Source: Eledone cirrhosa
Lineage: Eukaryota
DNA: 64,000 nt
Direction of reading: 5' to 3'
NCBI GenBank assembly: GCA_964016885.1
Contig: OZ024741.1
Location: 152,396,001-152,460,000, forward strand
Shown: one piece after another, positions 7,093 through 43,375 of the stretch
Position numbering within the stretch: the stretch's first letter is position 1
Layout of the letters: the number at the start of each line of letters is the position of its first letter
Position numbers and translations under genes: made by a program
The notes under the pieces: generated by a model
The model's input: only the letters and a program-made list of their open reading frames with translations
Databases searched by the model: none
What the model was told of the DNA's origin: nothing

Positions 7093-7335
7093 ACTTTGGA
7101 TATTCCTTATAAAGTAACATCCACTGCTGCCCCTTGGACTAAGTTCTGGGTGAACGCCGCACTCGATGGCTGTTTCCGAGTCCCGGATCAGATGAGAAAA
7201 CTCCACGTCGTCCTGGAATACATTATTAGTAACTGGAGGTTCGGCATGTCCCTCTATCGTCTCGTAATCCTCCATTGAGCCACCGTTCTGCTTCTCATTC
7301 AGTATTTTCATTTTATCCCCCGTCCCAGCTGCCAT
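7093..7335 (-). CDS. PI4K2: Phosphatidylinositol 4-kinase type II, first coding exon, proximal diverged variant (1b), 81 codons
   Basis: ATG at 7335 (MAAGTGDK...). Translation ends FQDDVEFSHLIRDSETAIECGVHPELSPRGSSGCYFIRNIQS, colinear with exon 1a and the PI4KII G-loop. Canonical donor AGT|GTAAGT at 7093/7092, phase 0. No stops or frameshifts. Confidence 0.85.
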
Positions 7336-8658
7336 CCTGATTAATTAATGGCAGTAATTATTAATTTAATTATTAATGGCTGGCGGTGACTGAGTATGCT
7401 TGTTAAGCGTTTTCTCTCCTCCTACTCCTTTTTTTTTTTTTACTTGTGACGTTTTGTTTTCGTTAATATATGGACTTCTTTAAAATATGTGACTTTTATA
7501 TCGACACTCTCATATGCACGTGTATTTATGCATGTTTATCATTCAGCGTGCATAGCATTCATGCGTGTGTGTAGAACATGTGCTTGTATTTGTACACACA
7601 CTGTTTGTGTGTGTGTGTGTGTGTGTGTGTGTGTGTGTGTGTGTGTGTGTGCGTGTGCGTGTTATATAATTACTCCCGTTGTCCATCCGTTACTATTTAT
7701 TGTCTTTCGTGATCAGATATATGTATTATATGTAGAAGTGTGTTTGTATATTTTACTATAATACGCATTGATACACGCACATATATACACACATGAGAGT
7801 ATTATATATCTTGTCTTCTATAACTAATTCCTGTATATATAATTATATATCCATGTCGAGTTAGTGATCAACTGAAACTAAAAACAACAGCAGCAACACT
7901 ACTACCAATAACTACCACTAACAACACTAAAGCCCTTTCTTTCTCTTTCACCTTCACAGTGGATGTGGATGTGCGTGCAAGTGGTTATTCATCAGTGTGT
8001 GTGTGTGTGTGTGTGTGTGTGTGTGCTACAACAGATGGTTGTAACACGTATATGTATGTTGTGAAGACTATCCCAGTAAGAAAAAAAATCAGACTGCCGG
8101 TTGTGGCTGTTTTATTGTGAAAATAATTACGTAGTCAGTCAAAAGTAGTAGTAGTGGTGGTGGTGATGATGGTGGTAGTAGTAGTAGTAGCAGCAACAAC
8201 AACGGCATGAGCAGGTCATCTACTTTGGTGGGCCCATTAATGATCCACAGAATAAACCATCCCATCAAGTGATCTCACTTAGACGAAATTTCTCAAGGAA
8301 AAACTTAAACAAAATGTCGTCGTATAAATATATGTCTATACACACATGCGTACAGATGGACACGTGTACAAGGACTGACTTTCACTTCTGGGTATTGAAT
8401 AACATTTTAATGAATTGTCTTGTTTTCGATTTTTCTCTCTCATCACCCTTATATTTACACACGCCCATATATATATATATATATATATATAGTAATAATA
8501 ATAAATTTGAAGACTAAAATCCAAAGAGGGCTCGATAAGGATAAATATATATCAAATATATAAGAACTGTCGAGCAAACATTTACTTTGTCAGTTTCAGA
8601 AGATCCCGTTAAGGGTGAAAGCAGCGATTCTTTGCTTAAACTTTAATCTGTTATTTTA

Positions 8659-8801
8659 AGAGAGAGAGAGAGAGAGAGAGAGAGAGAGAGAGAGAGAGAG
8701 AGAGAGAGAGAGAGAGAGAGAGAGAGAGAGAGAGAGAGAGAGAGAGAGAGAGAGAGAGAGAGAGAGAGAGAGAGAGAGAGAGAGAGAGAGAGAGAGAGAG
8801 A
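8659..8801. repeat. (AG)n microsatellite
   Basis: Pure AG run. Confidence 0.98.
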
Positions 8802-9479
8802 GGATGCCACATATACACACGTGCGCGCACCTTTTTCTCCACATACAAGACTGCTCCAACATGTCCTTAGCCACAATGGCTAAACCAAACAATCGCACCT
8901 TTCCCACTAAGTACGCAACTTATCTTGAACCTACAAAACTTCAATTTAAAGAATATGATGTATTGTGAATATATACATAATGAAGGTGCGATTTATACAT
9001 GCATATATATATATATATATATACACACCTCTTCCTCTCCCTGCCGAAATAGATCAATATGAAAAGAGCACAACCACCCACAGAGCGCGAGTCGTAGAAA
9101 GGTATGTAGGTTAGAGATCAATGAAAATGTGAATAAAATAAGTATGTAGGTAGTAGGGTGGCAAAGAAGTATTTAATGGTGTCTCTGATGAGAGGAAGAT
9201 TTAATTAAATGGGGGCCGGGTATAATGTGTGTCAATATAGCACAAAGAGGTTATGCGGACCGGTCTCCAATGGGGAAAGGTAAATTTAAAGTATTATAAG
9301 AAGATGGAGGAAAGGAGTTGAGTACTTATTTTTATTCCGATTCCTATATATTGTGAATAACCCCACCAACCACACCCTTAGTATGACCATGCTTATAATG
9401 TCATAATCAACATCCCGCCTGGCATATAAAGAAATAATTATTATTCATTATTCCAAAATCGATAAAAAAAAAAAAAAAG

Positions 9480-41779: not shown

Positions 41780-42240
41780 GGCACTACAATTTTGCTTGCA
41801 GCATTGCCATAGGCGATAGCGACACTAAGACACTAGAATAACTAAGCACCCTCATAAGGAGCATCAACTGATACATCAGTAAGGTGAGCACCAGCAATGA
41901 TGACAACCTTATTGCCAGCGCCCCCCCTCCCACACACACAAACGTATCGAACGGAACGGTGTAAAAATAGTTTGTGGATAATCCCTGGTATATTAGAATT
42001 TTATTCCGCTCTGTTACCACAGCATCCACAATGTGGGAAGGAGCAAAGAATCGCTGACTGTGGAGTCCCAAATGAGACATCTACCTGTTACGCAGGGACA
42101 AAGGGTAAGACTATCTGGCCTCTTTCCAGCAACCTTGGCTCCAAAATTGAGGGAATATAGATACACTTTGGCTGGAATTTCTACTTTAGAATGTAGGAAG
42201 AACGACATCGGATGTTGTAAGCCATTTAACTCGACCACTT
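41780..42240 (-). mobile_element. CRE-like (restriction-like endonuclease) non-LTR retrotransposon C-terminal remnant
   Basis: GKRPDSLTLCPCVTGRCLIWDSTVSD and downstream LSVAIAYGNAASKI match the KRPDG.T..PW..G..L.WD.T..D and LS.A.QRGNA motifs of RLE domains. Confidence 0.72.
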
Positions 42241-42958
42241 TATCAACAATAACATCAATAACTTCTTATATTGACGAGCTAATGAGAGAACGTAAATGTG
42301 GTTACTCCAATTGTTACAAATAACTCCCAAATCTCTCAAATCGCAACCACCCAACCCAATCTTAGCAGTGGCAAGAACACGGACAATGTACTCCTAAATA
42401 TTCACCAACTTAAACGGGATGGCAACGCGGCTAGAATACTTATCATAGGTCAATTTAGTAGGAAGTAACCTGGGTTTAAACAACTACTACTACTTACATT
42501 GGCACAAGACTTCACTATGTAAGAAATAAGATGGGTGGGTGAGAATATAATCGATGAAATCGTCTACTGTACATACACATTATATATATGACTAGTACAC
42601 ACACATGACTAGTAAATATTTCCTTATCGGCTCAGGAGGAAAGAAAAACAAAGTCGAACACGGTAGTATCTGCAATTATTCAGGAACTACAAAGAAAAAA
42701 CTAAACAAATATTGTAATGACGTTCTATTGTTTGTGGCAACTTCAACCTGTTGGGGTTGGAGTGATTGGCTAAGTTGCTCCAGCGTAATTTGAACTAAAA
42801 AGAAATACTCTATGTATACAACTTAGCTAAGAAACAGTACATACCTTTATAAAGATCTTATTTCTGGCTCCTTTTTTTTTTTTTTTTCAACAAAGAAAAA
42901 GAAATAAACAAGAGAAAGGGAATGAGGGCGAGAGGAGGTAAAATAATCGATAACTTAC

Positions 42959-43375
42959 CGGTTCTGCATCGTAGTTTTTAACGAAATAGCTGCCGCTCGA
43001 TCCTTGATAGATTCTTTCGGGGTAATTACCCTGGACTATAGCTCCTTCCGCTTGCCGGATACATTCGTTGAATTCCAAGTCGTCTGCGAAGAAATTGCCG
43101 AACAAGCCGTACTCGTACTCCACCCGGTTGAGCAACGGCGAGCTCTCGTTGTTGCCCATGCCGCGGGTCGGCGACCTGGCATGTCCTGTATTGCAAGTGC
43201 CTCCACCCGGTCCCGGAGGCCGGTGGGTACCCGTTGCAAACGCCACTTCGACGTCTAGGTCGGTAACTTCAGGTATTGCGCTTCCTCCGTTTGCATTGGC
43301 CGCCAGCAAGGTGCGACTGTCGTTATCCGACGACTCCAGTAAGACATTGCTCAGAACACGATCCTCTTCAGTCAT
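42959..43375 (-). CDS. PI4K2: Phosphatidylinositol 4-kinase type II, first coding exon, distal variant (1a), 139 codons
   Basis: ATG at 43375 (MTEEDRV...). Translation ends [44 protein letters not shown], matching the PI4KII N-lobe signature EF..vrqAE.AI....[15 protein letters not shown]. Canonical donor CCG|GTAAGT at 42959/42958, phase 0. GC/CpG-rich compared with its surroundings. Confidence 0.93.

Follow-up and report, generated by a model that had tools for sequence, protein, structure and literature searches.

Two duplicated first coding exons in front of one catalytic body in a PI4KII gene of Eledone cirrhosa

How many forms of type II phosphatidylinositol 4-kinase (PI4KII) can be encoded by one invertebrate gene? 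PI4KII makes phosphatidylinositol 4-phosphate (PI4P) on the Golgi, endosomes and lysosomes, and invertebrates are generally credited with a single form of the enzyme. The question is raised by a stretch of 64,000 nucleotides of the genome of Eledone cirrhosa (assembly GCA_964016885.1, contig OZ024741.1, positions 152,396,001 to 152,460,000; hereafter the window), in which two exons, 1a and 1b, each encode a PI4KII N-terminus including the glycine-rich ATP-binding loop (G-loop). The analysis presented here makes it near certain that the window belongs to a single PI4KII gene whose first coding exon exists in two duplicated versions, both used with one shared catalytic body. The two exons and their introns have the following positions in the window:

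43375-42959, minus strand: coding exon 1a of type A, the canonical form, with 139 codons for the N-terminal tail, the first helix, the G-loop and the following strand of the PI4KII N-lobe
42953..42958, minus strand: splice donor GTAAGT of exon 1a, phase 0; the predicted intron to exon 2 measures 111,502 bp
7335-7093, minus strand: coding exon 1b, type B; 81 codons for a short tail, the first helix and an altered G-loop
1..7092, minus strand: start of the intron that leads from the GTAAGT donor of 1b to exon 2, 75,636 bp in total

Both exons start with ATG, are open throughout and end at phase-0 GTAAGT donors. The last 44 codons of 1a can be aligned with 1b, with 21/44 residues being identical; this similarity reaches a tblastn E-value of 1.8e-8 in a search space of 264 kb and is therefore not due to chance. 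The donor positions are homologous, the exon ending eight residues (1a) or six residues (1b) past the YF of GSSGxYF, and the tails upstream of the homologous segment are not alignable between the two exons. The arrangement is that of tandem duplicated 5' exons, that is, two homologous coding exons in tandem with the same donor position and phase. A first-pass annotation of the window had described two intact ATG exons on one strand with a common end point after GSSGxYF, and its coordinates, frames and donors were confirmed. Exon 1b is identical to the first exon of Octopus sinensis isoform X2 at 66/81 positions (81%), and exon 1a to that of isoform X1 at 119/137 positions (87%). Because these values are similar, 1b is, as judged by protein identity and not by the ratio of nonsynonymous to synonymous substitution rates, constrained about as much as 1a and not decayed.

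The shared body was located in the 3.0-Gb genome, whose proteins most resemble those of Octopus. A full-length Octopus PI4K2 protein as the query gave ten matches on a single contig, corresponding to eight body exons, 1b and 1a. Exon 1a as the query matched 1a and 1b only; such searches score the best candidates, and a very diverged extra copy could escape them. The eight body exons lie outside the window at contig coordinates 152327456-152310950, and tblastn searches with six full-length PI4K2 proteins likewise placed every body exon to the left of the window. Exon 2, at the distances from the two donors given above, is preceded by a ttttcag acceptor, is read in phase 0 and begins with KIIGVFKP. 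The catalytic lysine (K152), the CCPCC motif, DRGNDN and the aspartate of IDNG are encoded in the shared exons 2, 4-5 and 6; these features are shared with human PI4KIIα and PI4KIIβ, which belong to the same family. Homology to the PI4KII catalytic domain is also evident from the best match of isoform B in the PDB, 4HND (E 2.7e-157, residues 36-386). Neither EEPY nor CCPCC, the motifs of exon 2, occurs in any of the six reading frames of the window, and tblastn with eight queries against the window and 100 kb on each side (264 kb, without N) revealed no second body and no further first exon. The first-pass statement that the window contains no exon-2-type segment was thus borne out by both approaches, and no body exon was found between 1a and 1b.

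Exon 1b is present in four public sequencing runs. The contigs of three of them (X1-X3) continue past the donor into the intron and are DNA-like. The fourth run (X4) yielded one contig of 524 nt at a depth of 4.4, which covers 7586-7093 with no mismatch, gap or joint and whose 30 loose letters are the first 30 nt of exon 2. This contig is a 1b-to-exon-2 splice in E. cirrhosa. Its stop 30 nt into exon 2 would correspond to a break in the 31-mer graph at the point where a second upstream sequence joins; this sequence could be exon 1a or unspliced intron.

The same arrangement can be found in other species. The database clusters of Octopus bimaculoides and O. sinensis each contain an isoform X1 (type A) and an isoform X2 (type B), and type B is also present in O. 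vulgaris. As a homologue query, exon 1b alone gave nothing; a profile of the full-length B protein succeeded, and its best 120 of 2715 matches, together with further cluster look-ups, provided 36 same-species comparisons between database gene models, picked for having two isoforms. In 25 of the 36, the two proteins are identical from the start of exon 2 and carry homologous but different A and B exons in front of the same junction point. These 25 species are 23 molluscs from three classes, Lingula and Lineus, and represent 21 genera. The other 11 comparisons differ in kind: in six arthropod pairs and in Gigantopelta X3 the junction comes 45 residues earlier and the G-loop is common to both proteins, two Palaemon pairs likewise have the G-loop in common, one comparison concerns a different Lingula exon and one a C-terminal difference in Branchiostoma. 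Capitella, Aplysia, Crassostrea virginica, Tegillarca and Nucella contributed B-like proteins for which the set contains no paired A exon, and the B-type loop was seen in no deuterostome or arthropod protein named among the matches listed. Going by these gene models, the duplicated-exon design is much older and wider than the cephalopods. The first-pass proposal of one gene with two first exons and a shared body is hence upheld by the genome search, the X4 contig and 25 species, and its restriction to this locus proved too narrow.

Three further observations were made in these sets. In Lingula anatina, isoforms X1 and X2 reveal that this gene exchanges homologous exons at a second place as well, namely in the segment with the catalytic IDNG aspartate. 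Two B-type models of O. vulgaris differ at the C-terminus, which suggests an alternative last exon. An unnamed fragment of 58 amino acids is 58% identical to exon 1b, contains an EDYET motif and is probably the B exon of another cephalopod.

What distinguishes the two isoforms was assessed in 22 A/B pairs, namely those of the window, of Octopus and of 20 other genera. Their N-terminal tails differ in the following elements:

43130..43147, minus strand: acidic dileucine ESSPLL in exon 1a, the counterpart of the AP-3-binding ERQPLL of human PI4KIIα
7255..7266, minus strand: YETI in exon 1b, a Y[ED]xΦ motif; candidate tyrosine sorting signal or phosphotyrosine site

In the human enzyme, the dileucine motif ERQPLL is needed for the binding of AP-3 and BLOC-1 (PMC3708732, PMC7617826). 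An acidic dileucine motif is present in 22/22 type-A tails and in 0/22 type-B tails. Conversely, Y[ED]x[ILMV] occurs in 16/22 B tails and 0/22 A tails at all three cuts tried, with a shuffle mean below two, and a second tail motif, D-x-x-x-I[IVL], is found in 16 of the 22 B tails and in none of the A tails. Generic YxxΦ was also tried as a marker of type B but gave way to Y[ED]xΦ, because its count among the 22 A tails is 1, 12 or 13 depending on the cut. Exon 1b was also compared with 1.84 billion representative sequences; of the 134 hits, 28 are B-type, 93 are A-type and 13 were left unclassed. These hits overlap with the named set in taxa and are not independent of it; among their long tails, the dileucine motif is found in 0/20 B versus 51/63 A sequences and Y[ED]xΦ in 13/20 B versus 4/63 A sequences. 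Isoform A, which has the acidic dileucine and the canonical loop of human PI4KIIα, would be sorted by AP-3/AP-1 like its human counterpart. Isoform B, without the dileucine, would be routed elsewhere, most likely via the Y[ED]xΦ motif.

The tyrosine of the B tail could instead be a phosphorylation or SH2-docking site and not an adaptor signal, and isoform B would then be unsorted or regulated by signalling. This explanation is rather doubtful, but is one of the two main alternatives, the other being a catalytically weak isoform B. It draws on the commonest context of the tyrosine, which is acidic ([DE]Y[ED]x[ILMV]) and resembles Src-family substrate and SH2 motifs, and on the presence of YxxΦ in four of the seven arthropod short first exons looked at. 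However, the Y[ED]xΦ string also fits the YxxΦ adaptor consensus, and the B motif stands in place of a tail whose human version bears an established adaptor signal.

The second difference concerns the G-loop, whose residues were numbered as in human PI4KIIα by alignment to 4HND, with P127 to F139 aligning without a gap:

42983..43015, minus strand: canonical G-loop region in exon 1a (human 129-139)
7111..7143, minus strand: type-B G-loop region LSPRGSSGCYF in exon 1b, with R129L, I130S, Q132R and S137C (human numbering)

According to the structural study by Zhou et al. (PMC3974213), the G-loop comprises residues 130-136 and is highly conserved among PI4KIIs, the beta-phosphate is held by Ser134 and Ser137, and the adenosine cavity is lined by Ile130 and Phe139; Arg129 touches the membrane, and the R129A exchange reduces activity. 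In type A, R129, I130, Q132, S134 and S137 are invariant, each in 22/22 sequences. In type B, L129 is found in 22/22, S130 in 18/22, a lysine or arginine at position 132 in 20/22 and C137 in 19/22 sequences, and position 134 is occupied by threonine (16/22) or serine (6/22). P127, G133, S135, G136 and Y138 are kept in 22/22 sequences of either type. Exon 1b of the window has L129, S130, S134 and C137, so that the canonical R129/I130/S134/S137 loop is present in 1a and not in 1b. Among the representatives, in which the B-type set was selected by L129, C137 occurs in 23/28. L129 alone was dropped as a marker of type B, as two unnamed proteins combine it with an otherwise canonical loop. An AlphaFold model of O. 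sinensis isoform B, built from a 30-sequence alignment, was unusable for the pocket (mean predicted local distance difference test score 62.6; root-mean-square deviation 16-19 Å to PI4KII crystal structures); it confirms the family only and is not relied on.

From these residues, isoform B is predicted to be still a kinase: it keeps the glycines, the hydroxyl at position 134, Y138 and F139 as well as the shared catalytic lysine and aspartate. It would lose a contact of the adenine pocket (I130S) and a phosphate-binding hydroxyl (S137C), and the basic residue would have moved from position 129 to position 132, where it could stand in for R129. The loop changes would thereby alter ATP affinity, rate, lipid preference and the binding to acidic membranes. 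Given the conservation of the B residues, A and B have likely diverged in function in one way or another. Alternatively, isoform B might be a weak or dead kinase acting as a membrane-anchored scaffold or as a competitor of isoform A, which is considered unlikely. None of R129, I130 and S137, which contact ATP or the membrane in the human structure, is kept, and the single exchange R129A is enough to lower activity; moreover, as described in PMC9741552, tandem duplicated exon substitutions tend to avoid ligand sites and usually keep the ligand-binding residues where they overlap with them (80.6%). On the other hand, G133, S135, G136 and Y138 are invariant in B, position 134 is always serine or threonine, a basic residue is available at position 132 and the catalytic lysine and aspartate are provided by the shared body. 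Furthermore, the replacements are themselves conserved and not random.

How the choice between the two exons might be made is indicated by the sequences in front of them:

43501..43522, minus strand: putative acceptor above the 1a ATG (pyrimidine tract and CAG)
7336..7586, minus strand: 5' untranslated sequence continuous with exon 1b, at least 251 nt; the X4 contig starts at 7586

The acceptor at 43501 lies 125 nt above the ATG of 1a, and 18 of the 20 bases preceding it are pyrimidines. Because of this strong acceptor, 1a is probably the first coding exon and not the first exon of the transcript, and the signal at 43501..43522 suggests a non-coding exon further upstream. Each Octopus X1 protein has two RefSeq accessions, an observation consistent with untranslated exons upstream of 1a. 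The leader of 1b, as seen in the X4 contig, is unspliced over 251 nt, and none of the AGs between 7336 and 7800 is preceded by more than 12/20 pyrimidines, which means that no strong acceptor was found above 1b. As the first-pass annotation had noted, splicing of 1a to the nearest AG before the 1b ATG (7337) meets an early stop, here after seven codons. Separate promoters for 1a and 1b are likely on the basis of these signals. A transcript from a distal promoter upstream of 1a would skip 1b, which lacks a good acceptor despite its donor, and would encode isoform A, and a proximal promoter just above 1b would give rise to isoform B.

Instead of separate promoters, 1a and 1b could be joined by mutually exclusive splicing to a common upstream non-coding exon. 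The strong acceptor upstream of 1a would fit this model, as would the several B proteins with more than one RefSeq accession, which suggest different 5' untranslated regions. The model is nevertheless improbable: the 1b contig extends 251 nt above the ATG without a joint, and the AGs in 7336-7800 have at most 12/20 pyrimidines before them. A pyrimidine-rich stretch followed by CAG was also noticed inside exon 1a (43084-43105, minus strand). It lies 45 residues ahead of the catalytic FKP, which is the place at which the short first exons of Gigantopelta X3 and of arthropods join, and exon 1a may contain an internal acceptor for a third isoform at this position. A low-power search of the 264 kb for a third, short first exon resembling these yielded nothing credible.

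Trees of the homologous segment were calculated under LG+G4 without mixture. The B exons and Capitella form one group with support values of 93/84 (51 rows, 54 columns) and 96/93 (32 rows, 45 columns); exon 1a of the window groups with the A exons of Octopus and Sepia, and 1b with Octopus B. An approximately unbiased (AU) test rejected a Lingula-only duplication (A+B; p 0.017). A single mollusc-wide origin of the B exon is well supported, mainly by the shared residues, and one duplication before the split of cephalopods, bivalves and gastropods appears likely. An origin predating the split of molluscs, brachiopods, nemerteans and annelids is probable from these comparisons, which would make the B exon presumably more than 500 million years old, going by the divergence dates of these groups. 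Several independent origins of B-type exons followed by convergence are decidedly improbable: octopod-only and Lineus-only duplications survive the AU tests and long branches can group falsely, but four common replacements, the D-x-x-x-I[IVL] tail motif and the same junction are found over three mollusc classes, and the B clade is present in both trees. The idea that vertebrate PI4K2B descended from exon B was rejected; PI4K2B has the canonical loop and the dileucine, support was weak, and although 2B and B were grouped in the 51-row tree (80/78, unstarred), 2B did not fall within the B clade of the 32-row tree. A pair of tandem genes, a pseudoexon or a faulty assembly have a negligible probability, as nothing was found in their favour, there is one body, the 264 kb contain no N, the contigs X1-X3 cross the 1b donor as assembled, and 1b is spliced and conserved nearly as well as 1a (81% versus 87%).

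Taken together, one gene with two first exons, likely selected by promoter choice, probably encodes two PI4P kinases, which are predicted to be both active and to differ in sorting and in their contacts with ATP and the membrane. None of the outcomes that speak against the first-pass proposal, i.e., a second set of body exons, an exon without transcripts or a misassembly, was encountered. A number of observations nevertheless weigh against this reading. In E. cirrhosa, the 1b junction was seen in a single contig (depth 4.4) of a single run of unrecorded type, and the 1a-to-exon-2 junction is known from the X1 isoforms of two Octopus species, from which we infer it for E. cirrhosa. Since the pairs were selected by the presence of two isoforms, they give no share of species with 1b. 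Several molluscs, e.g., Liolophura, Solemya, Pinctada and Lottia, are listed with type A only, as are Tubulanus, Argonauta and Sepia, although a species missing B in a listing may still have the B exon in its genome. The rows compared are related, and shuffle controls overstate the significance of the tail motifs; with the cut moved, 12-13/22 type-A tails have a generic YxxΦ just before the helix, and the B tails of Mytilus and Lingula have no YxxΦ. The trees comprise 45-54 columns only and have long B branches, the AU tests did not reject an octopod-only (p 0.077) or a Lineus-only (p 0.16) duplication, and the B exons of Lingula, Lineus and Capitella keep S137 and I130, so that the common feature is mainly L129.

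The vertebrate enzymes offer a loose analogy. Vertebrates have two genes, and the PI4K2A- and PI4K2B-type proteins examined both carry RI[YS]QGSSGSYF, whereas the two forms described here derive from one gene. The comparison with PI4K2A/PI4K2B drawn in the first-pass annotation is loose because the loop has stayed canonical in vertebrate 2B proteins. Isoform B is an isoform and not a separate gene, and has a non-canonical loop and no dileucine; its name 'beta-like' in RefSeq is no evidence of PI4K2B orthology. Its loop, L-S-x-[KR]-G-[ST]-S-G-C-Y-F, differs from the PI4KII loop that is described as highly conserved in PMC3974213.

Variable-first-exon genes are known from UGT1A and the clustered protocadherins; unlike these arrays, the PI4KII gene has two variable exons only. 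Parallels are also offered by the tandem duplicated exon substitutions covered in PMC9741552, 40/236 of which are N-terminal in human; the N-terminal events combine homologous 5' coding exons with a constant region, as is the case here. The same source describes FYN, in which homologous alternative exons of FynB and FynT span the kinase domain's start, the ATP site included, and are tissue-specific (PMC9741552). In contrast to the internal, mutually exclusive exons of FYN, the PI4KII exons are first coding exons, also swap the targeting tail and belong to a lipid kinase. Unlike typical events, the PI4KII exon changes two of the four nucleotide contacts (I130 and S137), often carries S134T and loses the membrane contact R129. 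By its exon sequences, the PI4KII case belongs to the class of tandem duplicated exons; what sets it apart is that ligand contacts and sorting tail change at once. Arthropod PI4KII genes have short alternative N-termini without a dileucine (0/7 looked at) in front of a shared body, as here; however, these first exons are not homologous duplicates, their junction is placed about 45 residues earlier, ahead of the first helix, and the G-loop stays unchanged. Arthropods thus show the same tail switch, the loss of the dileucine, through a different exon layout. In the literature searched, which leaves most subscription journals outside its scope, no description of PI4KII isoforms from duplicated first exons was found, and the main text of PMC9741552 does not contain 'PI4K'. 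The isoforms are already in RefSeq under automatic names and the architecture itself is not new; the PI4KII case is apparently undescribed.

The remainder of the window contains a very high-copy repeat near 6050-6400 and, identified by eye in introns and upstream, fragments resembling the reverse transcriptase of long interspersed nuclear elements (23337-23798, 36549-37052, 50141-51435 and 52445-53284). Among the 26 open reading frames of at least 130 amino acids, only retroelement-like and simple-repeat frames were seen by eye apart from the two exons.

One invertebrate gene therefore encodes two forms of PI4KII, and the second alters residues which, outside this form, do not vary between insects and vertebrates; the automatic names 'alpha-like' and 'beta-like' of such isoforms do not mean two genes. 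It is conceivable, though offered tentatively, that exon choice has given lophotrochozoans an undescribed second class of PI4KII for more than half a billion years, set apart by compartment, kinetics or lipid specificity and perhaps subject to redox control; in this class, one exon would set the trafficking address, by exchanging the dileucine for a tyrosine motif, and would carry a rebuilt nucleotide and membrane loop, in which a conserved cysteine occupies a position that binds phosphate. The B isoform is present in databases for Aplysia, oyster, mussel and octopus and can be tested there. In this gene, nature has mutated the PI4KII G-loop and long conserved the outcome while leaving the body identical, so that a comparison of A and B isolates the effects of the first exon on ATP binding, membrane sensing and sorting.

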